A stretch of 62,865 nucleotides of DNA, the filler included. It is 5 parts of 5 records of this genome, joined end to end, with 100 filler letters (N's around TTAATTAATTAA, not from the genome) between each part and the next. Parts side by side here need not be neighbours in the genome. Positions count along the whole stretch, not along the records: positions 1 to 28,700 come from SRR31156797_8674; 4 more parts are not named here. One strand, written 5' to 3'. The notes beneath the pieces are model-generated. The model did no database searches, had not been told where the DNA came from, and saw only the letters and a list, made by a program, of their open reading frames with translations. Numbering within the stretch: the first letter of the stretch is position 1; every line of letters begins with the position of its first letter. The position numbers and the translations under genes are program-made. Below, piece by piece: positions 3,753 to 57,335 of this stretch.

Positions 3753-4544
3753 ATGGGATACGTTAGAGCTAAAAAGAATCTGGGACAACACTTTTTGAGA
3801 GACCTAAATATTGCAAAAAAAATTGTTGCAGGGATGGAAGCTACTAATGTTTCAAAAGTTCTTGAAATAGGTCCAGGTATGGGCGTATTGACACAATACC
3901 TTCTTCAAAATGATAATTTTGAGACCCATGTTGTTGAAATTGATACTGAATCAGTAGCTTATTTGAAAGAAAATTTTCCTCAATTATCGGATCGTATTAT
4001 TGGAGAAGATTTTTTAAAGTATGATTTAAAATCATTATTTAAAGAGCCATTCGCCGTAATAGGTAATTTTCCATACAATATATCATCACAGATTTTTTTT
4101 AAGGTTCTGGAGCATCGTGATCAAATTCCTGAAGTAGTTGGAATGATTCAAAAAGAAGTTGCCGAGAGAATGGCTGCTGTCCCAGGCAATAAAACCTTTG
4201 GTATATTGAGTGTATTAATGCAAGCATTTTACGATATAGAATATCTGTTTACAGTAAGTGAAAATGTCTTCGATCCACCACCCAAGGTTAAATCTGCAGT
4301 AATTCGCATGAAGCGGAATACAACCTCGAACCTCGAATGTGATGAAAAATTATTTTTTCGAGTCGTGAAAGCCGGTTTTAATCAGCGCCGGAAAACTTTA
4401 AGAAATTCCTTGAAAGCCGTTTTAGGAGATCAAAAACTTGATGATGAGTTGATGTCTAAAAGACCAGAACAGTTAAGTGTTCAGGAGTTTGTATATCTAA
4501 CTTTAAAAGTGCAGGAATTGCTGAATACACAACTAAGAGAATAA
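3753..4544 (+). CDS. rsmA: 16S rRNA adenine dimethyltransferase RsmA/KsgA
   Basis: [29 protein letters not shown] and PPPKVKSAV motifs. Confidence 0.97.
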
Positions 4545-4568: not shown

Positions 4569-5927
4569 ATGCAATTTGAATTGACTCGCGAATATATCGA
4601 TAATTTAAAAGTAGTTATCGAAGAAAAGAATGAAGCAGAGGCAATTGGTTTAATGGAAGAATTGCATCCTGCAGATATAGCTGAAATTTATGATGAGTTA
4701 AGCATAGATGAAGCAAAATTCCTATACCTTTTACTTGACGGAGATACAGCTGCTGATGTTTTAGCAGAACTGGAAGACGATGATCGTGAAAGATTCCTAA
4801 AATCTTTACCAGTTGAGGTCATTGCCAAAAAGTTTATCGATAAAATGGATTCCGATGATGCTGCCGATGTAATTGGTGGATTGTCAGAAGAACAGCAAGA
4901 GGAGATTTTATCTCATATTGAAGATATTGAACAGGCTGGTGACATTGTTGATTTGTTGCATTATGACGAAGATACTGCCGGCGGTTTAATGGCGAAAGAA
5001 CTTGTGATTGTAAACGAGAACTGGACGGTTTTAACATGTTTACGAGAACTAAGTCGTCAGGCTGAAGATATTGATGAAATATATTACGTTTACGTTGTTG
5101 ATGATGATAACGTATTGAAGGGAACCTTATCATTGAAAAAAATGATATTGAGTTCTACATCCGCGAAAATCAGTAATATTTATCAACCCGATGCAATGGC
5201 TGTTCATACCGATGAAAAGGATGAAGAGGTTGCTTTAATTATGGAGAAATATGACTTGGTAGCTATACCTGTTGTAGATAGTATTGGACGCTTAATGGGA
5301 CGTATTACCATTGATGATGTTGTAGATGTAATTCGTGAAGAAGCAGAGAAGGATTATCAAATGGCTTCCGGTCTTGCCGAAGATATTGAAGCAAGTGACT
5401 CAATTTGGTTACAAACTAGAGCCCGTCTTCCTTGGTTATTAATTGGATTAGTTGGTGGTATTTTTGCAGCTATGGTTATTTCTATTCGTGAAAAAGAGCT
5501 AGACGCTACACCAGCATTGGCATTTTTTATTCCTCTAATTACTGCAATGGCTGGTAATGTAGGAGTACAGTCTTCTGCAATTATTGTGCAAGGTATTGCG
5601 AATAATTCATTGGGTTTCGAGAGTACTTTTAGTAGATTATTAAGGGAATTAGGAGGAGCACTTATTAATGGTTTAACCTGTTCATCATTGTTGTTTTTAT
5701 GGAATTATTTTGTTGGGGATTCTATGGCTTTAACAATGACAGTTTCTATTGCTCTTTTTGCAGTAATCATATTTGCCGCAATTGCAGGAACTATTATTCC
5801 ACTAATGCTAAATAGAGCAAAAGTTGATCCGGCTTTGGCAACGGGTCCATTTATTACAACATTAAATGATATTGTTGGTTTGTTAATCTATCTGACAATT
5901 GGCGCCTATTTTTATGGTGTTTTATAG
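4569..5927 (+). CDS. mgtE: Magnesium transporter MgtE
   Basis: LHPADIAE N-domain, CBS pair, RLPWL, AGNVGVQ and DPALATGPFITTLND. Confidence 0.96.
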   Translation: MQFELTREYIDNLKVVIEEKNEAEAIGLMEELHPADIAEIYDELSIDEAKFLYLLLDGDTAADVLAELEDDDRERFLKSLPVEVIAKKFIDKMDSDDAADVIGGLSEEQQEEILSHIEDIEQAGDIVDLLHYDEDTAGGLMAKELVIVNENWTVLTCLRELSRQAEDIDEIYYVYVVDDDNVLKGTLSLKKMILSSTSAKISNIYQPDAMAVHTDEKDEEVALIMEKYDLVAIPVVDSIGRLMGRITIDDVVDVIREEAEKDYQMASGLAEDIEASDSIWLQTRARLPWLLIGLVGGIFAAMVISIREKELDATPALAFFIPLITAMAGNVGVQSSAIIVQGIANNSLGFESTFSRLLRELGGALINGLTCSSLLFLWNYFVGDSMALTMTVSIALFAVIIFAAIAGTIIPLMLNRAKVDPALATGPFITTLNDIVGLLIYLTIGAYFYGVL

Positions 5928-6066
5928 AATTAATTATTTTGTTGAAGTACATTGGTTCGTAGGATCTAAATTGATGTTTTTTATTAAGGAGTTTCATTAT
6001 TTTCTGTGCCTAATAAAAAGTTGAACAAAAAGTAATATCACAGGTCGGATTTTTTTAGGTTTTTCT

Positions 6067-6074
6067 TAACTTTG
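6067..6074 (+). promoter_or_regulatory. Bacteroidota -7 promoter element of purH
   Basis: TAACTTTG matches TAnnTTTG and lies about 130 nt upstream of the purH ATG. Confidence 0.7.
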
Positions 6075-6076
6075 CA

Positions 6077-6189
6077 GGAGGTTTTTAGAGGTCTCGTAAA
6101 TTATTATAAATGAATGATTTGCAAAACCTATGAGCCGAGATAGTTTTTCGCAAGAAAAATTAAATTATACCATTTTATAAAATACCTCC
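6077..6189 (+). ncRNA. Candidate structured cis-regulatory RNA in the purH 5' leader (class not recognised)
   Basis: Stems: GGAGGT/ACCTCC closing stem, TCTCG/CGAGA, GTAAATTATT/AATGATTTGC, and TAGTTTTTC-GCAA-GAAAAATTA with a GNRA loop. A possible AGGT/ACCT pseudoknot is also present. Confidence 0.55.
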
Positions 6190-6202
6190 AAAAAAAAGAA
6201 CC

Positions 6203-7735
6203 ATGAAGAGAGCGCTTATCAGTGTGTTTGATAAAACAAACGTAGTTGAATTTGCTAGAGAGCTAACAAGTTTAGGCTGGGAAATTATTTCTACCGGTGG
6301 AACTTCTGCTAAATTTAAAGCTGAAGGAATACCGGTTATGGATATTTCTGACCTAACTCAATTTCCAGAGTGTTTTGATGGTCGTTTAAAAACGATACAT
6401 CCTCACGTTGAAGGTGGAATTTTGGCTATTCGCGATAATGAAATGCATCAAAAACAAATGGCTGAGTTAGGAATCGACCCTATCGATATTGTGGTTTGTA
6501 ACCTTTATCCGTTTAAGGAAACTGTTTTAAACCCTAAATCAAGTCACGAAGATATTGTTGAAAATATTGATATAGGTGGTCCAACTATGTTGAGAGCTGC
6601 TGCTAAGAATTACAATTTTGTATCTGTAATTACAGATCCTGAAGATTATACGAAAGTAATTGAGGAGTTAAAAGCTTCAGGTGATACAAGTATTGAAACA
6701 AAAGAGTATTTAGCGGCAAAGGTATTCGAACATACAGCACATTACGATGCGTTAATTTCAGGATACTTCAATAAAAAGTTGAATGTAAAATCACCAAAGA
6801 CTTTAACGCTCACATACGAAAAGAAGCAAGATCTTCGTTATGGAGAGAACCCGCATCAGAATGCAACTTTCTATACTCAAATTCAAGAGACAGAAGGAAC
6901 ATTAACTGCTGCAAATAAAATTCACGGTAAGGAATTATCGTATAATAATATTGGCGACACTGATGGTGCATTAGAAGCTTTAAAAGAGTTTGATGAGCCA
7001 ACAATTGTTGCAACTAAGCATGCCAATCCTTGTGGTATTGGTAGTGGAGATTCTATTTCAGTAGCTTTTCAAAGAGCTTACGATGCAGATCCTGTATCAA
7101 TTTTTGGAGGAATCGTTGCTGCCAATCGCGAAATTGATAAGGCTACAGCAGAAATAATGAGTGGTATTTTCTTAGAAGTTATTGTTGCTCCTTCGTATAG
7201 CAAAGAAGCGCTGGAAATACTAACTAAGAAAAAGAATTTAAGATTATTGGAGTTGCCAGATATCTTAAAATCTGATTATTCATCTTTCAAAGGAAAAACC
7301 GTTTTAGGTGGATTTTTGATTCAGGAGATGGATAAGGAATTAATTGGAGGAGATCTTGAAGTTGTTACGGACAGAAAACCTACAGAAAGAGAAATGGAAG
7401 ATTTGATGTTTGCTTGGAAAACAGTGAAACATGCAAAATCAAATGGAATTGCCTTAGCAAAAGACAAAACATCAACAGGTGTTGGTCCGGGACAAGTAAG
7501 TCGTATTTGGGCTTTGGAAAATGCAATCCGACAAGGTGGAGATAGAATTAAAGGAAGTGTTTTAGCTTCTGATGCATTCTTCCCATTTTCAGATTGTGTT
7601 GAAGCAGCACATGCAGCAGGAGTTACAGCTATTATTCAACCAGGAGGTTCGATAAGAGATAAAGATTCTATTGAAGCGGCTAATAAGTTTGGAATTGCTA
7701 TGGTATTTACAGGAATGAGACATTTTAAACACTAA
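6203..7735 (+). CDS. purH: Bifunctional AICAR formyltransferase/IMP cyclohydrolase
   Basis: RALISVFDK, STGGT, ENIDIGGPTMLRAAAKN, LRYGENPHQ, KHANPCG, ASDAFFPF and TGMRHFKH. Confidence 0.98.
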   Translation: MKRALISVFDKTNVVEFARELTSLGWEIISTGGTSAKFKAEGIPVMDISDLTQFPECFDGRLKTIHPHVEGGILAIRDNEMHQKQMAELGIDPIDIVVCNLYPFKETVLNPKSSHEDIVENIDIGGPTMLRAAAKNYNFVSVITDPEDYTKVIEELKASGDTSIETKEYLAAKVFEHTAHYDALISGYFNKKLNVKSPKTLTLTYEKKQDLRYGENPHQNATFYTQIQETEGTLTAANKIHGKELSYNNIGDTDGALEALKEFDEPTIVATKHANPCGIGSGDSISVAFQRAYDADPVSIFGGIVAANREIDKATAEIMSGIFLEVIVAPSYSKEALEILTKKKNLRLLELPDILKSDYSSFKGKTVLGGFLIQEMDKELIGGDLEVVTDRKPTEREMEDLMFAWKTVKHAKSNGIALAKDKTSTGVGPGQVSRIWALENAIRQGGDRIKGSVLASDAFFPFSDCVEAAHAAGVTAIIQPGGSIRDKDSIEAANKFGIAMVFTGMRHFKH

Positions 7736-7742
7736 AATATTT

Positions 7743-7790
7743 GCCTTGTTCGGATATGAGAAGTACTTTTCATATCCGAATTGGCATTTT
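7743..7790 (+). terminator. Hairpin/terminator between purH and mreB
   Basis: TTCGGATATGA...TCATATCCGAA stem extended by GCC/GGC and followed by a T run. Confidence 0.6.
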
Positions 7791-7820
7791 TAAATAAGAT
7801 AACAGAGATACAGCTACCAT

Positions 7821-8843
7821 ATGGGATTTTTTTCATTTTTAACACAGGAGATTGCCATCGATTTAGGTACAGCTAACACAATTATTATCAGCAATGATAA
7901 AATTGTAGTGGATGAACCATCGATAGTAGCTCTAGACCGCCGCACCGAAAAAATGGTTGCGATAGGCGAGAAAGCTCGTCAAATGCAAGGTAAAACTCAC
8001 GAAGATTTGAAAACCATTCGTCCTTTAAGGGATGGGGTGATTGCCGACTTTAATGCGGCTGAGCAAATGATTCGCGGGATGATCAAAATGATCAATAAGA
8101 AACCTCGCTTATTTCCTCCTTCGTTAAGAATTGTTGTGTGTATTCCATCGGGTAGTACCGAGGTTGAAATGCGTGCAGTTCGTGATTCTTCGGAACACGC
8201 TGGTGGTCGTGATGTGTATATGATTTATGAGCCAATGGCAGCAGCTATCGGTATTGGTATTGATGTTGAAGCACCAGAAGGTAACATGGTTGTTGATATA
8301 GGTGGTGGTACTACAGAAATTGCAGTGATTTCGCTTGGAGGTATTGTTACCAACAAATCGATTCGTATTGCGGGTGATGATTTAACTATTGATATTCAAG
8401 AGTACATGCGTCATCAACACAATATTAAAATTGGAGAAAGAACAGCTGAGGAGATTAAGATTCATGTTGGTTCTGCTTTGTCAGAGCTAGAAGAACCTCC
8501 AACAGATTTTCGTGTTCAGGGACCGAATCAAATGACAGCTCTTCCAATTGAAGTACCTGTTTCATACCAGGAAATTGCACACTGCCTTGAAAAATCGATT
8601 TCTAAAATTGAGATTGCAATTTTAAGTGCATTGGAGCAAACGCCTCCTGAATTGTATGCTGATATTGTGAACAGAGGTATTTATCTTGCTGGTGGTGGAG
8701 CTTTACTTCGTGGTTTAGATAAACGATTGACCGATAAAATTAATATACCATTCCATATTGCTGAAGATCCGTTAAGAGCGGTTGCACGTGGTACTGGTAT
8801 TGCTCTAAAAAATGTTGATAAGTTTTCATTCTTGAGAAGATAA
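7821..8843 (+). CDS. mreB: Rod shape-determining protein MreB
   Basis: IAIDLGTANT, EPMAAAIG, VDIGGGTTE and GGGALLRGLD. Confidence 0.98.
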   Translation: MGFFSFLTQEIAIDLGTANTIIISNDKIVVDEPSIVALDRRTEKMVAIGEKARQMQGKTHEDLKTIRPLRDGVIADFNAAEQMIRGMIKMINKKPRLFPPSLRIVVCIPSGSTEVEMRAVRDSSEHAGGRDVYMIYEPMAAAIGIGIDVEAPEGNMVVDIGGGTTEIAVISLGGIVTNKSIRIAGDDLTIDIQEYMRHQHNIKIGERTAEEIKIHVGSALSELEEPPTDFRVQGPNQMTALPIEVPVSYQEIAHCLEKSISKIEIAILSALEQTPPELYADIVNRGIYLAGGGALLRGLDKRLTDKINIPFHIAEDPLRAVARGTGIALKNVDKFSFLRR

Positions 8844-50237: not shown

Positions 50238-53200
50238 TTACCATTTGTACAATATTTCGTTAAATACATATGTATTATCATTTTTAGTATCAAATGTATT
50301 TGGGATACTAGGCATAGGACCTTGAGGGGAATCGAGGTTAATACTAACTTTAAAACTTCCTCCAATAATGCCATTGTAAGCACTAAGATCAATTAAATTG
50401 ATTTGCTGAGTATATTTATTTAAATCTGCTTTCATATTATACATAAATAAATTACCTCCTATTGCTGCATTTCCTGTAGTTAAACTTTTCTCAGCACTAA
50501 TCCCAATTGGCCCTTTACCTAATGCCACATGGAATTTAACTTCACTTGGATATTCTACTCCCTTATTAAGAGATCCTTTAATTATTTCTTTACTAATTCC
50601 AGCCTTACCTTCTATTCCCCACCCAAATATTTTACATTTAGACCCAATGGTAGGTCCAACTTCTATTGATGATTCTATATCAATGAAATAAACAGAATTA
50701 TCATTAGGATTTTTAGCGAAACTATAAAGTTGTGTAAAATCAATTCTTAACAAATTATTATCAACTGCTATATTTACAGAAACTGCATTTTTTATACCAT
50801 ACGAAATCGAATGATGAGTAATATCGATATTAAGTAAACTCTCAGCATAAGCTAAACTTGAGCTAAATAAATCTATATCAGGAATTCGTACATAATCCGA
50901 TAGAGATAAATTACTACCAGTTTCCTCTCTATATTGAAACCACTCACTAATGACTTCAGGAGAATAAGGATCGACTCCATTAAAACTGCTAACAGAATTA
51001 CCAGCTGATCTATATCCTTCATAATTATTTAATCTTTGGCTGGCTGATAACATAGCAGCTCCTATTCCAAAATCACTGCTAATTCTATTCCCACTTCCTC
51101 CAGCTTGTCCCTCCGGGCGAGGTAATGGGAGTTGATTGATATAACCACTTGGATCCACACAATTTATTGGATTATTCATACAATACGAATACCTATTGTA
51201 ATTAGCCGTATTACCCGGAGCCTGAATAAAAGGATCAGGGCTTACAAACTGCATAGTATTTGGACAGTAAACCCTTCCATTCATATGTATTAGATTAAAA
51301 TCATCCAGGTGTTCGTGCATGGTAAATCCCCTGTCTGTAATATATGTACTAACAGTTGCTGCATTACCCCAATTTTGAGGATCACGCCTAACACCCCAGA
51401 CATCAAAAGCTTGTTCTTCTACAATATTTCCCGATTCATCAATAAGCATATTTATCGAACCTAAGTGATCGCTAAGCGTGAAATACATATGGTTTACATC
51501 ATTTTCATCCATCACATTAATGGCTGACAGACCACTTGGAGCGCTAACATAATGAATCCTTTGAGTATTGTTGTTTTCAGTTACTTCTTCGTAATTACTT
51601 TGATAATATTTAGTTTTTACAATTTGCTGGTTTTGCTTCTGAACTGCTTTTCGCCTTGCTTTGTCAAACCCATAGGTAAAGTCAATTACATCGTTACCTT
51701 TGCTAATGGCTGTTAAATTATTTTCGGTGTCAAAGCTTAATCCGCCATAAGCTAAATCCAAGCCATCCTGTTCAATACTTTGTAGCCTGTTGTGTTTGGT
51801 ATTATCATACAGTAAAGTATTTTTTGCAGGTTCAGTAATATTACTGTACGAATCGTAATTAAAAGTACGTTCATCCACTTTTATGGCATTGTGGTATGTA
51901 CTAATGCTTTGTATGCGATTTAAATTATCGTAAACAAACGATTCGGAGTTGTTGTATATATCCTCTCGCCTTTGATTAATATTACCTTTATCATCGTAAG
52001 CTACATTATAATCGTAGTAGCCAGACAGGTATTTACGTTTAAAACGACCATACTCGTCATATTGCAACTCCAAGGGATTTAATGTACCCAGTGTATAATT
52101 TTCAAAAGCCATATATTGATTTTGCTCACCAGCCTGCCAAATAAACTGATCATCGCCATAGCTAATACCTGTTAAATAGTCACTTTCCGAGAGGTAATGA
52201 TAGTTTAATTCAAAACCTGATGGATATATATATTGGCTCAACCTGCCTTTTTCGTCATATTGCATGGCTGTACTAAAAGCTTTGCCCTCAATGGTTTCAG
52301 TATAGTTGATTTGTCGCCCAATTTTATCGTATGTATAGTCAATACTAAAGTTATTGGAAGATGATAAACCGGATAGTGCCCCTTTCCATTTGGTATCGTA
52401 AGTAAATGAAGTAGTTGCCCCACTCTGAACTTGTTTTTCTATAATCCTACCTAATATATCATACGCAAACTCTACTTTTAAATTACGGGCATCAGTTGTA
52501 GATACCACTTGTCCCCAAGCATTATACACATTGGTCGTTGTTCCTCCATTAGGGGTTTGTGTACTTAGCTTATTACCATATATATCGTAGGTCATCACCA
52601 CATCGGCATTATTACCTGCAATTCCCGATTGTTTTAAAAGCCCGTTACTGTAATACTTATAGGCCACCTTTGATCCATCGTTGTTGGTGGATTCAATTAG
52701 TTCGCCCAATGCATTATTTTTTTGCGTTGTTGTTACAGTTGTTGTTCCTTTTGTTACCGAGCTGGTAACACTGCGCAAACTCTCATTATAGGTATATGTT
52801 AACACCGAACCATCCGGATTAGTAACAGTTTTTACCCTATTGTATTTATCGTAGGTATAAGTTGTGTATAAAATATTACTCTGATTTAAATAATGCGGCA
52901 CTGTTTGTCGGTGCAACAAACCCGTAGATTGGTCATATTCAAAATCTACATATACTTTCACCTTATCACTGCGACTTTCGTTTTGCTTTTGCCCCACAGT
53001 TCTTATGGTACGCCCGGCCTTATCGTAATAGGTTTTGCCTACACTACTTAAAGATGATTTGGATTCGCTCATATAAAAGGCTCCTTCAGGAGCATCCGTA
53101 TCTCCCGAATCAATCCACTTTAACGTACTATACGAAGTGGTACCATCCGCACCAATAGCCAGAGAAGTACGGTTTAAGGCATCATATTGACTGTAGGCTT

Positions 53201-56200
53201 TCAGTCCGTTTATATCGGTTTGTTCCACCAAGGCTCCTGATACTTCATCATATTTATTTACTACAAACTGATTAAGAGGGTTAATCGCTTTTTCCATAAA
53301 CCTCCCATCTGCAGTATACAAATAAGTTTCTGTCACCGATTTTAAATCCTGAGAGATAAGCGGATCGTTATCGGCTGATAACGTTTTGGATCTTACATTA
53401 CCAAACGTGTCGTACTGTATAGTTTGAGATACTTCCTTATTATCACCCGGCTCCTGAATAACTGTTTCAAGCTTACCATTACTATAATAGCTAAAGCTTT
53501 GGTTACGGGTAATGGCCGTTTCATTTGGTCGGCTTTCAGTTACTACATAAGTTTCAATCCTACCCGGTATCCATTCTGTAGTGGTGTTAATTTCATATTC
53601 AGGGTCTTCCGTTTTGGTATATACCAATGTTGTTCCATCGTATACCCTAGTCGTAGATAATATTGTATTACCATTACCATCCTGTTCCGTTTCTTTAATA
53701 CTTTTAGTATTGCTTTTTAAATTCTTACTCTCAACGTTTGAGACATAGGAATGATACCTCCCCGACCCGAGATCAACTTCCGATAAGATATTTGTGGAGC
53801 GTGACAGCGTTTCTTCTGTGCTGCCTTCAATGTGAATATACTCTGATATATGAGGATACATAAACATATGACTGGAATTAATATCGAATTGTGTACGACT
53901 TATCATTCCAGTGTTTTCATTATATGCTTCAGTCTGTTGAAAGCCTAACATTCCTGCTCCTAATAGATGCTCTGTTAGACCGATATAAGTATATTTGGTA
54001 GTGTTTACTTCGTTGTTAGTAATTTCTTCTTCAACTGAAGAGACAAGCCAAATTGGAAAGTTCACCTTTAATAAAGGGAAAGTGACCTGACTACCACTCT
54101 GGTAAAAGTTACCCCCGTCAGTCAGGTTTTGGTATTCGATGGATATAGTTCCATTTACATTAGAAACGGAGCTTAATGCAAAATTTTTATCCCTACTGGA
54201 TATCTCTACCATCCTGGTTTTATTTTCCTTTTGATATGAACTGATTGTTTTATAAAATACATTTAAAATTTCAGCAGCTCCATCTCCATCAAAATCTCCA
54301 GTTACAGGATGATTTTCAAAAATATCTTCTTCACTATATGTTTGTTCATAACCGGGTAATGCTTCTTTTACAAACTTTTCTCCTCCCTTTAAGAGACTAA
54401 AGGAGAAATCTGTCACCATATTATTTGGGTCTTGGCTACCCGGAACATTATGAAAGGCCTTATAAACTATAATGTCATGTATTCCATCTCCATCAAAATC
54501 TGATGTCAAAATATTGTTTCCGTTGGGAAAATCGCTAATGTGTAGGTTAGTTAAGAAGTCTTCATCCTTAATATAACTATTACCTGTACCTATATAAAAT
54601 GACATAAGCTCATTCTCATATAGCCTAAATAGGTCAGTTATTCCATCACCATTAAAATCTTCAAAATAACAACTTCCTGTATGGTCTGTATTTAAGGTAT
54701 ATAATTTTTCCAATTGGTTACTTTGATTATATGCAATAATATCAATCTGAGTTCCCATTACCACAAATAGATGCTGGTTGCCATCACCAAAAATACTTCC
54801 TGTTTTAATTTCTGACAATATACCGGATAGGATGAGATAGTCCTTTTCTATAAAATTATTTGTTTGACAATTAATTTCATAAATCACTAGTTTTTTATCA
54901 CTATTTCTATAGACTAACAATTCTGTTTTTTTATCATTATTTAGATCTGCTAATAAAGTTCTATCATATTCACCTTCAAGCTCTAGTTTAAATCTTTGGG
55001 TAAATCCATTAACATAAGATTCGTAGTAAGTAAAAACTGTTTTATTTGTAGGATCAGACGTTCCTCCACCTGGTAAAGGCTCTCCAGGTTCAACTACTAC
55101 TTCATTATAGATAATGTCTTCGTTTCCATCCGAATTGATATCTTTTACGCCGGTTATATTTGAACTTTGAAAGGTAAAACTAGTTAATGTGGTATGTCCA
55201 CTGCTGCTAGAAAGCAATACCCCCTTATCACCTACTAAATCTTCTTTACCATCTCCATTAAAATCACCGGTAACGCATTTTTCGGAAAGTGGATTAAAAT
55301 CGCCATATGATGTCGGATGCTCGGAAGAATCGTTGTAATCAAAAACAGTTGCGTTATAATGCGTAACATCATCTGTTCCAAATTCTGTTACCTTACTTAA
55401 TAGCGCCTTATCGCCAATTGTTGTATACTCTAGGCGGTATCGACGCAATTGCTTGGAGTTATAACCAGTAGATATGTTTTTAATTCTTTTATTCAGCTTA
55501 AAAGCATTACCCGCAGCATAGCTTACACTTACAGGGTTGCTTTCGTATTCAAAGTTAACGTACCCTTTAAGATTAGTGCCGTTTCCGTAAACAATAGATG
55601 TGGGTCTAAAGTTAGCCAGGTCTGTTTTTAAACTTCCTGATACAGTGTAATCACAGGTATAGTTATATTGAATGGTATTACCATCTATGTCTGTTATCCT
55701 ATTCAGAAACCAGGCAAATGTTGGATTTGATGCATCAACATAAGCCAGCTGCCTGGAGTCAGAAGTCTTACCATACTGCATAATGGTACCAAACTCATCG
55801 ATTACCTCAAAGTATTCTGGCCCATCAGTATCAATATTATAGGCTATAATCTTTGTTCGATTACTGGTTTTTAACCTGTACTCTATCGAGGTAGGTTTAT
55901 TACTACTATATTCAATTAATTGAGTACCGTTGTAATACAAGTTGTCAGCATCATCCCATTTAATATGGTCGTATTCGCCATCGTCAAAAAGGTTTTTACC
56001 TCCTCTTACTATAGCGCTTAAGCCACTTAAACTAAATTTATCTGACAGTAAACCAGTAGTTGATCCACCTACGTAATCTATAGATAAGGAAGGATGCATA
56101 CCTCTAATCCCTGGCGAAACCATTATAGGCATGCTGTAATTAAAACTTCCCGAATTAACAGAGTGAGAACCCGATGATGCCCCAACTACTCCTGTATTAC

Positions 56201-56459
56201 CTACCTCTCCACCTGGACCTCCGGTGGTGTTAGTTAAATCGGGTTGAATTAATTTATTATTGATCTCGGCTCTAAATTCACCGTTCTGTGCACTCCAGCT
56301 AAATCCATCCGAAAGTATAATATGATCTTTAGCCATAAAATGGCCTGTTTCATAATTGTTTTCATCTGGTAAATTGAAAGTATTGGCTACATTTTGCGCA
56401 TGCACAATACCTATACCCATACTTAAAGCTATCGTACATAGCCTCAAAAGTTTATTCAT
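50238..56459 (-). CDS. RHS/YD-repeat polymorphic toxin with SpvB/TcB-like N-region and FG-GAP (VCBS) repeats
   Basis: Signal peptide; FNYSMPIMVSPGIRGMHPSLSIDY; GDFNGDGKED/DFNGDGITD repeats; many YD repeats; core motifs DHLGSI, RGFTMHEH, HMNGRVY and NRYSYCMNNPINCVDPSG; about 300-aa C-terminal tip. Confidence 0.95.
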   Translation of the reverse strand: MNKLLRLCTIALSMGIGIVHAQNVANTFNLPDENNYETGHFMAKDHIILSDGFSWSAQNGEFRAEINNKLIQPDLTNTTGGPGGEVGNTGVVGASSGSHSVNSGSFNYSMPIMVSPGIRGMHPSLSIDYVGGSTTGLLSDKFSLSGLSAIVRGGKNLFDDGEYDHIKWDDADNLYYNGTQLIEYSSNKPTSIEYRLKTSNRTKIIAYNIDTDGPEYFEVIDEFGTIMQYGKTSDSRQLAYVDASNPTFAWFLNRITDIDGNTIQYNYTCDYTVSGSLKTDLANFRPTSIVYGNGTNLKGYVNFEYESNPVSVSYAAGNAFKLNKRIKNISTGYNSKQLRRYRLEYTTIGDKALLSKVTEFGTDDVTHYNATVFDYNDSSEHPTSYGDFNPLSEKCVTGDFNGDGKEDLVGDKGVLLSSSSGHTTLTSFTFQSSNITGVKDINSDGNEDIIYNEVVVEPGEPLPGGGTSDPTNKTVFTYYESYVNGFTQRFKLELEGEYDRTLLADLNNDKKTELLVYRNSDKKLVIYEINCQTNNFIEKDYLILSGILSEIKTGSIFGDGNQHLFVVMGTQIDIIAYNQSNQLEKLYTLNTDHTGSCYFEDFNGDGITDLFRLYENELMSFYIGTGNSYIKDEDFLTNLHISDFPNGNNILTSDFDGDGIHDIIVYKAFHNVPGSQDPNNMVTDFSFSLLKGGEKFVKEALPGYEQTYSEEDIFENHPVTGDFDGDGAAEILNVFYKTISSYQKENKTRMVEISSRDKNFALSSVSNVNGTISIEYQNLTDGGNFYQSGSQVTFPLLKVNFPIWLVSSVEEEITNNEVNTTKYTYIGLTEHLLGAGMLGFQQTEAYNENTGMISRTQFDINSSHMFMYPHISEYIHIEGSTEETLSRSTNILSEVDLGSGRYHSYVSNVESKNLKSNTKSIKETEQDGNGNTILSTTRVYDGTTLVYTKTEDPEYEINTTTEWIPGRIETYVVTESRPNETAITRNQSFSYYSNGKLETVIQEPGDNKEVSQTIQYDTFGNVRSKTLSADNDPLISQDLKSVTETYLYTADGRFMEKAINPLNQFVVNKYDEVSGALVEQTDINGLKAYSQYDALNRTSLAIGADGTTSYSTLKWIDSGDTDAPEGAFYMSESKSSLSSVGKTYYDKAGRTIRTVGQKQNESRSDKVKVYVDFEYDQSTGLLHRQTVPHYLNQSNILYTTYTYDKYNRVKTVTNPDGSVLTYTYNESLRSVTSSVTKGTTTVTTTQKNNALGELIESTNNDGSKVAYKYYSNGLLKQSGIAGNNADVVMTYDIYGNKLSTQTPNGGTTTNVYNAWGQVVSTTDARNLKVEFAYDILGRIIEKQVQSGATTSFTYDTKWKGALSGLSSSNNFSIDYTYDKIGRQINYTETIEGKAFSTAMQYDEKGRLSQYIYPSGFELNYHYLSESDYLTGISYGDDQFIWQAGEQNQYMAFENYTLGTLNPLELQYDEYGRFKRKYLSGYYDYNVAYDDKGNINQRREDIYNNSESFVYDNLNRIQSISTYHNAIKVDERTFNYDSYSNITEPAKNTLLYDNTKHNRLQSIEQDGLDLAYGGLSFDTENNLTAISKGNDVIDFTYGFDKARRKAVQKQNQQIVKTKYYQSNYEEVTENNNTQRIHYVSAPSGLSAINVMDENDVNHMYFTLSDHLGSINMLIDESGNIVEEQAFDVWGVRRDPQNWGNAATVSTYITDRGFTMHEHLDDFNLIHMNGRVYCPNTMQFVSPDPFIQAPGNTANYNRYSYCMNNPINCVDPSGYINQLPLPRPEGQAGGSGNRISSDFGIGAAMLSASQRLNNYEGYRSAGNSVSSFNGVDPYSPEVISEWFQYREETGSNLSLSDYVRIPDIDLFSSSLAYAESLLNIDITHHSISYGIKNAVSVNIAVDNNLLRIDFTQLYSFAKNPNDNSVYFIDIESSIEVGPTIGSKCKIFGWGIEGKAGISKEIIKGSLNKGVEYPSEVKFHVALGKGPIGISAEKSLTTGNAAIGGNLFMYNMKADLNKYTQQINLIDLSAYNGIIGGSFKVSINLDSPQGPMPSIPNTFDTKNDNTYVFNEILYKW

Positions 56460-56961: not shown

Positions 56962-57061
56962 NNNNNNNNNNNNNNNNNNNNNNNNNNNNNNNNNNNNNNN
57001 NNNNNTTAATTAATTAANNNNNNNNNNNNNNNNNNNNNNNNNNNNNNNNNNNNNNNNNNNN
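56962..57061. other. Artificial contig spacer
   Basis: N44-TTAATTAATTAA-N44. Confidence 0.99.
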
Positions 57062-57335
57062 CATCATCTTGCGTGATCTGTACTTTAAGCGTTCAAGCAA
57101 TAACCACGGCTATTTGGCTGCTATTTTGAAGGCTGAAGGCGTGTTGGTGAACTTGCCGAAGCAGCCGACGGTTTTGTGCCTGGAGAAGTGGGAACCCCTT
57201 TTGAAGAAGATTAAATCATTGAATGAAAAAGGGATCAGTCTCACTGACCACATAGCTGTGGCGGCGAATAAGCGGGCTGAGCGGAGAGCAGAGCTTTTGT
57301 CTGGGAAACGGACGGTGAAGGCCCCAAAAAACTGA
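57062..57335 (+). CDS. Hypothetical protein, 5'-truncated
   Basis: The frame is open from the contig edge (..LYFKRSSNNHGYLAAILKAEG..) and is followed by a terminator-like hairpin. Confidence 0.65.

Follow-up and report, generated by a model that had tools for sequence, protein, structure and literature searches.

A conserved structured 5′ leader precedes purH in Marinifilum and related genera

The purH locus and its promoter

The purH leader lies in the first part of the window (the whole 62,865-nt stretch of DNA that was analysed, along which all positions are counted), within positions 1–28,700, which come from SRR31156797_8674. The source organism is a Marinifilum species, with a purH protein 99% identical to that of a contig assigned to 'uncultured Marinifilum sp.'. 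The leader region has ksgA and mgtE as upstream neighbours, and purH is followed by mreB and then mreC (Table 1). The spacer between mgtE and purH is 275 nt long and holds a Bacteroidota-type promoter box, TAACTTTG. Among the purH relatives that were kept, Marinifilaceae and Odoribacter-type genomes (74–99% identity) were followed by Clostridia, Tissierellia and other Bacillota (57–64%) and not by other Bacteroidota, a ranking that may be an artefact of the peptide patterns used or may reflect an unusual history of purH. The purH–mreB spacer contains, at 7749–7791, an 11-bp hairpin formed by TTCGGATATGA and TCATATCCGAA and followed by TTGGCATTTTT, which from its sequence resembles a terminator for purH; upstream of mreB no TAnnTTTG box can be seen, and the promoter of the leader may also feed mreBCD. 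Elsewhere in the window, at 56962–57062, two runs of N (a masked stretch) are broken by TTAATTAATTAA and adjoin an ORF of 2073 aa on the minus strand (50238–56459).

The available text of two Bacteroidota transcriptome papers (PMC7366714, PMC9723704) gives TAnnTTTG as the sigma-A consensus and −12 to −5 as its position, the latter being stated in PMC9723704. Because the box of purH is placed at −12 to −5, a rule that comes from Bacteroidota other than the host, transcription is predicted to start near A6079, which gives a 124-nt leader with its first helix, H1, running from +2. Of 30 loci checked, 28 have the sequence ...TTTTTTAGG(T/C)TTTTTCTTAACTTTG in the 45 nt that precede the RNA match, and the two exceptions (L180 and L189) deviate in the TTAGG block. 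This promoter block has a single occurrence in the three genomes searched and in the window. An A-rich word (AAAAAG..AAAAA) recurs ~55–80 nt upstream of the box in Marinifilum and Labilibaculum loci (5928–6049 in the window) and, judged from its sequence, could serve as an UP-like or operator element.

The leader sequence is present in assembled Logan contigs with small word shares, all from the RNA libraries of one study; these contigs give no start, end or level. One of them spans 5900–6127 and, because it crosses the promoter, read-through from mgtE or DNA carry-over is possible. Another RNA-library contig, from a close relative (run X4), comprises exactly 6096–6215 with sequencing adapter on both sides and a word depth of 30; it may represent a short, abundant cDNA fragment that starts at the first base of the hairpin HP1.

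Table 1 Features of the purH locus, in positions of the window.
Feature	Position	Strand	Description
ksgA	3753–4544		Neighbour of the leader region
mgtE	4569–5927		Upstream neighbour of purH
T-rich block TTTTTTTAGGTTTTTCT	6050–6066	+	Precedes the promoter box; hardly varies within the family
Sigma-A '−7' promoter box TAACTTTG (TAnnTTTG)	6067–6074	+	Directly upstream of the RNA match in 30/30 loci checked
Predicted transcription start (A)	6079	+	Placed from the box at −12 to −5; 124-nt 5′ UTR
H1, 5′ arm GGUUU	6080–6084	+	Pairs with GAGCC 6132–6136; helix adjoins the predicted 5′ end
Middle helix, 5′ arm AGGU	6089–6092	+	Pairs with ACCU 6126–6129; nested; MFE
HP1	6096–6122	+	10-bp stem, 7-nt loop; top of the long 5′ hairpin; GTAAATTATT (6096–6105) pairs with AATGATTTGC (6113–6122)
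3′ arms of the middle helix (6126–6129) and H1 (GAGCC, 6132–6136)	6126–6136	+	RNAalifold, MFE, 38-leader alignment
HP2	6141–6162	+	9-bp A/U-rich stem, GCAA cap; MFE
HP3	6165–6180	+	Weak 5-bp hairpin UUAUA/UAUAA; predicted
Tail TACCTCC, A-run, GAAC C	6183–6202	+	Conserved, unpaired; reaches the start codon
purH	6203–7735	+	Bifunctional AICAR formyltransferase / IMP cyclohydrolase; Pfam AICARFT_IMPCHas, E 5.9e-121
mreB	7821–8843		Downstream of purH; followed by mreC

Fold and covariation of the leader

Folding of the region 6067–6210 gave −26.9 kcal/mol (z −2.98, equalled by 2 of 200 shuffles). When folding started at the predicted transcription start (6079–6220), z was −1.67, with 11 of 200 shuffles equalling it, and for the 5′ domain alone (6079–6140) z was −3.39, with 1 of 200. 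The MFE structure from 6079 consists of exactly H1, the middle helix, HP1, HP2 and a weak third hairpin, HP3, and the outer stem is gone. The long 5′ hairpin that is built from the first three of these elements was recovered in 34 of the 38 distinct leaders when each was folded singly.

Covariation was counted in an unfitted MAFFT alignment of these 38 leaders. The covariation score was 0.331, compared with 0.09–0.19 when the partners were slid by 1–3 columns, and none of 500 column shuffles reached it. The H1 and HP1 columns were paired in 84–88% of cases, compared with about 40–54% for slid partners, and 10 of their 15 pairs had changed on both sides. The larger share comes from the 10-bp stem of HP1, which the initial annotation had already proposed and which is well borne out (84% pairing, and two-sided changes at 7 of its 10 pairs). 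Two of its ten base pairs in the window are G–U, and the frequent U–G and G–U pairs fit the plus strand only. The two A–U pairs at the base of HP1 (UAA...UU) and the closing U–A pair are invariant in 38/38 leaders. H1, which was absent from the initial annotation, was first given by RNAalifold on the first 17 leaders, along with the 10-bp stem, and is 88% paired with three of its five pairs changed on both sides; in Ancylomarina, GGUUU:GAGCC is replaced by AACUA:UAGUU, with GC turned into AU at two pairs. An all-against-all scan for stacked helices placed HP1, H1 and two parts of HP2 best, with H1 as the top new helix, and yielded nothing else convincing. The register of the middle helix differs from clade to clade, which lowers its pairing in fixed columns to 58%, and longer equivalents are seen by eye in Labilibaculum leaders.

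All of the complementary segments listed in the initial annotation are present in the window, yet they fared unequally in the family. GGAGGT (6077–6082) and ACCTCC (6184–6189) are complementary in the window, as are TCTCG (6092–6096) and CGAGA (6136–6140), but across the family these helices are 56% and 51% paired, respectively, compared with 42–52% for controls slid by 1–3 columns, and on the 24-leader set they were likewise no better than slid controls. Both exist in a Marinifilum subclade only, and both conflict with H1. Moreover, a start at 6079 would leave two of the six bases of GGAGGT untranscribed, so that the transcript probably lacks part of this arm. The AGGT/ACCT pairing that had been considered a potential pseudoknot is an ordinary nested helix within the long hairpin, namely the middle helix. 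Three further kinds of candidate were rejected. A pairing of the first bases after the box with the start codon (CAUGA:UCAUG) is 92% canonical, but its location is 5′ of the predicted start, it has changed on one side only, and in the window itself it is disrupted; candidates from a single-column covariation scan were isolated pairs only, in data dominated by clade signal; and pairings of the 5′ purines with the U-run of HP2, or of the 5′ arm of HP1 with 93–98, were low-information A/U–G/U pairings.

Downstream of the 5′ domain, a hairpin is found at the position of HP2 in 31 of the 38 single-sequence folds, which bears out the GCAA-capped 9-bp hairpin proposed for 6141–6162. Its arms differ by clade (UAGUUUUUC/GAAAAAUUA, GAGAAUUA/UAAUUUUC and AAUUUCAUUUUU/GGAAAUGAAAUU), and in a common register only three central U–A pairs are shared. 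HP2 is weak, at −3 to −10 kcal/mol, and no U-run follows it. HP3 is a predicted hairpin whose sequence is nearly invariant in the Marinifilum and Labilibaculum clades. With few exceptions, the unpaired positions conserved at ≥90% fall within the final 25 nt (UACC(U/C)CC, the A-run and GAA) and at the start region, and the tail has a predicted unpaired probability of 0.63 compared with 0.38 for the 5′ domain. Neither the single-column nor the stacked-helix scan found a covarying partner for the tail or the loops. The tail motif is not a general feature of start sites, its count being at the level of the reversed-pattern control.

The sequence of the 5′ domain has drifted far. Identity between genera is 0.44–0.56, compared with 0.37–0.52 at four-fold degenerate sites of purH. 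Because pairing and length are kept despite this synonymous-level drift, we conclude that the shape and spacing of the hairpins, and not their sequence, are under selection. The junctions and loops of the 5′ domain contain no unpaired column conserved at ≥90%. There are no terminator-like sites in 5800–6400, and the all-against-all scan found no conserved alternative helix, the sole alternative pairing being limited to one clade. Nor is there a conserved uORF, since an ATG frame is altogether absent from 11 of the 38 leaders, and in the others the frames differ by clade in position and sequence.

Distribution and catalogue status

Upstream regions of relatives were gathered by a purH search in one-genome-per-species contigs and metagenomes, and a covariance model was built from 24 leaders. 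The model gave one match per genome in 34 of the 97 genomes of the GTDB family of the window, a family of marine Bacteroidota (Marinifilum, Labilibaculum and Ancylomarina), exactly one strong match in each of five related genomes and, among the 151 genomes sampled from the order, a match in the reference genome alone. At each of the 30 loci checked, TAACTTTG lies directly upstream of the leader and purH directly downstream. The distance from the box to ATG+6 is 139–144 nt in all Marinifilum, Labilibaculum, Ancylomarina and unnamed Marinifilaceae loci, and the length of the leader is held at 128–133 nt. The initial description of a conserved, densely paired, promoter-proximal cis RNA before purH is thus borne out, with covariation in H1 and HP1.

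Outside this group, the purH loci of Butyricimonas, Sanguibacteroides and Gabonibacter have short, unrelated leaders. The model had no match in Odoribacteraceae-type loci, in eight purH loci of other phyla or in four metagenome loci with longer leaders (L086, L087, L096 and L098). These four form another purH group, the fourth, which is 80–82% identical and has its features ~140–255 nt upstream of purH. Their promoter is similar, TTTTCTTA(C/T)(A/T)TTTGCAAGGA, and their first hairpin starts alike, with GTAA(A/T)(A/T)T(A/G)TTGAT, of which GTAA(A/T)TTATTG is shared with HP1; they also carry an ACC(T/A)TTTTAT(A/G)AAT block, and their leaders fold differently from that of the window. Weak matches of the model elsewhere in the window (E 0.07–8.6) were rejected as second copies since they lie inside coding sequence, and weak extra matches at E 0.4–0.5 occurred in two genomes. 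In the genomes searched, the promoter block and the tail motif do not occur elsewhere above the control level. Because there is one copy per genome and neither of these elements recurs, the leader is a single-locus, purH-specific feature.

The leader belongs to no catalogued class, as had been proposed from its sequence. A search of the whole window against Rfam 15 gave no match at the gathering score, and neither did the loci of 12 relatives (63,026 nt). At a relaxed threshold (E ≤ 10), the region 5900–6300 returned only mir-3036, PVX_3 and RMST_3 (E 1.3–5.2), which are eukaryotic or viral chance matches outside the structured part. The ZTP riboswitch, whose hallmark hairpin the initial annotation had found lacking, is not matched either: model RF01750 (threshold 39 bits) has no match in the window, none at E ≤ 10 in 5900–6300 and none at E ≤ 0.001 in the five related genomes. 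Literature searches on purH, riboswitches and structured RNAs gave no description of a purH leader of Bacteroidota, and purH has no mention in the main text of the two Bacteroidota transcriptome papers (PMC7366714, PMC9723704). The leader is a real, conserved and uncatalogued RNA structure.

Possible roles of the purH leader

The usual cis-RNA before purH is the ZMP/ZTP riboswitch (pfl motif, RF01750), which, as described in the available text of PMC2864571, shares with the present leader the position in the 5′ leader of purH and a fitting one-carbon and purine context. Unlike that riboswitch, the Marinifilum leader has no model match, no conserved core nucleotides, no pseudoknot, no terminator and no sequestration of the start site. 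Our preferred reading, which we hold tentatively, is that the purH mRNA carries a structured 5′ UTR that acts in cis, is specific to the family and apparently does not sense a metabolite. We favour this reading because the pattern of conserved positions, the sequence drift, the missing features and the open start region are unlike those of known metabolite aptamers. Transcription would probably start near 6079 from the sigma-A promoter, and the 124-nt leader would fold into an irregular 5′ hairpin of ~57 nt (H1, middle helix and HP1), the A/U-rich hairpin HP2 and the weak third hairpin, from which a conserved single-stranded C/A-rich tract would run into the AUG. With its 5′ terminus in a stem-loop, the message would be shielded from decay of the kind that needs a free 5′ end, and the hairpins would hold the A-rich landing site of the ribosome unpaired, which would matter because Bacteroidota mRNAs do without Shine–Dalgarno pairing. 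Acting in this manner on the stability or translation of the purH mRNA, protection and an open landing site together would set a high, mostly constitutive level of PurH, as we propose.

Stem-loops at the 5′ terminus that stabilise the message are known from the ompA leader of E. coli and the aprE leader of B. subtilis. By analogy, the purH leader would resemble these in having a hairpin ~1–2 nt from the predicted 5′ end, in conserving shape over sequence and in the open initiation region that follows. It differs from them in its three hairpins of fixed geometry and its conserved C/A-rich tail, which go beyond what those elements need. A geometry held so strictly (10-bp stem and 7-nt loop, with spacings and total length also fixed) exceeds the needs of a plain stabiliser and hints at a specific partner or a tertiary fold. 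In addition, leaders of >100 nt are a minority in B. thetaiotaomicron, at 13.5% of mRNAs according to the available text of PMC7366714, and the long 5′ UTRs of that species are often regulatory, which counts against a plain structural reading. Some other control of purH may also be expected, since the ZTP riboswitch is absent from all five related genomes.

A partner of this kind could be a trans-acting factor, either an RNA-binding protein that recognises the hairpins with their fixed geometry, or else a protein or small RNA bound to the UACC(U/C)CC and A-rich tail; the factor would adjust the translation or decay of purH to the purine or growth status. A geometry that stays constant while the sequence drifts would suit such a platform, as would the base (UAA...UU) and closing U–A pair of HP1, invariant in 38/38 leaders, and a tail motif that is conserved, specific to purH and not general to start sites. 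The unique and almost invariant promoter block also suggests tight control. However, we found no candidate factor, no second target (there is one copy per genome) and no covarying partner for the tail or the loops, and we consider a trans-acting factor possible but rather unlikely.

A purH-specific sensor, whether a riboswitch whose pocket is formed by base pairs (the invariant UAA/UU of HP1) or a docking site for an RNA-binding regulator, is a doubtful proposition. In the form of a new metabolite riboswitch, the long 5′ hairpin would be the aptamer (for ZMP, PRPP, IMP or a folate) and HP2, HP3 and the tail the expression platform. What speaks for this is a covariation-supported leader of fixed-length architecture in front of one of the classic target genes of riboswitches (pfl motif, in the available text of PMC2864571), together with the lack of any Rfam match and of ZTP riboswitches in the five related genomes. 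In the Marinifilum clade alone, the 5′ GAGGU also has two possible partners, GAGCC and the ACCUC immediately before the start codon. That alternative, however, is confined to one subclade, and its 56% pairing equals the controls. The putative aptamer has no junction or loop nucleotide conserved at ≥90% and has diverged to the level of synonymous sites within one family, there is no terminator, and the element, confined to one family, has one copy per genome and precedes no gene but purH. The sensing of a purine or one-carbon metabolite suggested by the initial annotation is not supported, since its expected hallmarks are missing (conserved loop nucleotides, a terminator, an alternative helix, and more than one copy or gene), and we regard a new metabolite riboswitch as quite improbable.

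It is improbable, too, that the hairpins are functionless and belong to an inherited, slowly decaying spacer, with selection acting only on the promoter and the start region. The narrow distribution, the ease with which A/U-rich, low-complexity sequence forms hairpins and a whole-leader z of just −1.67 from the predicted start are consistent with such a spacer. It is opposed by the compensatory double changes in 10 of 15 H1 and HP1 pairs, by pairing of 84–88% compared with about 40–54% for slid partners, by a length that stays constant despite saturated sequence divergence and by the same architecture in 34 of 38 independent folds. A transcription attenuator of the leader-peptide or terminator type, to which the long leader with its several hairpins and the short ATG frames in some leaders might point, is very improbable and close to refuted, given the 11 of 38 leaders without an ATG frame, the clade-specific position and sequence of the remaining frames, the absence of terminator-like sites in 5800–6400 and a weak HP2 (−3 to −10 kcal/mol) with no U-run after it.

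As a structured 5′ UTR, the purH leader has counterparts in its phylum. F. psychrophilum has 64 structured 5′ regions in the available text of PMC9723704, and the long structured 5′ UTRs of Bacteroidota described there and in that of PMC7366714 belong to the same class of feature and have the same type of promoter. The purH leader stands as a clean, single-locus RNA structure of fixed geometry that is supported by covariation. To our knowledge, little is known about the control of purine synthesis in Bacteroidota or about the post-transcriptional tuning of their mRNAs that are without Shine–Dalgarno sequences. If the sensor reading were true, the leader would link the synthesis of PurH to purine or one-carbon status in Bacteroidota, which have neither Shine–Dalgarno control nor the ZTP riboswitch. 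Several of the hosts can be cultured (Marinifilum fragile, M. flexuosum, Ancylomarina spp. and Labilibaculum), so that the leader is testable for its part in stability and translation and for a partner. If it is a sensor, it would represent a new class of regulatory RNA; if it is not, it would be one more lineage-specific structured 5′ UTR.
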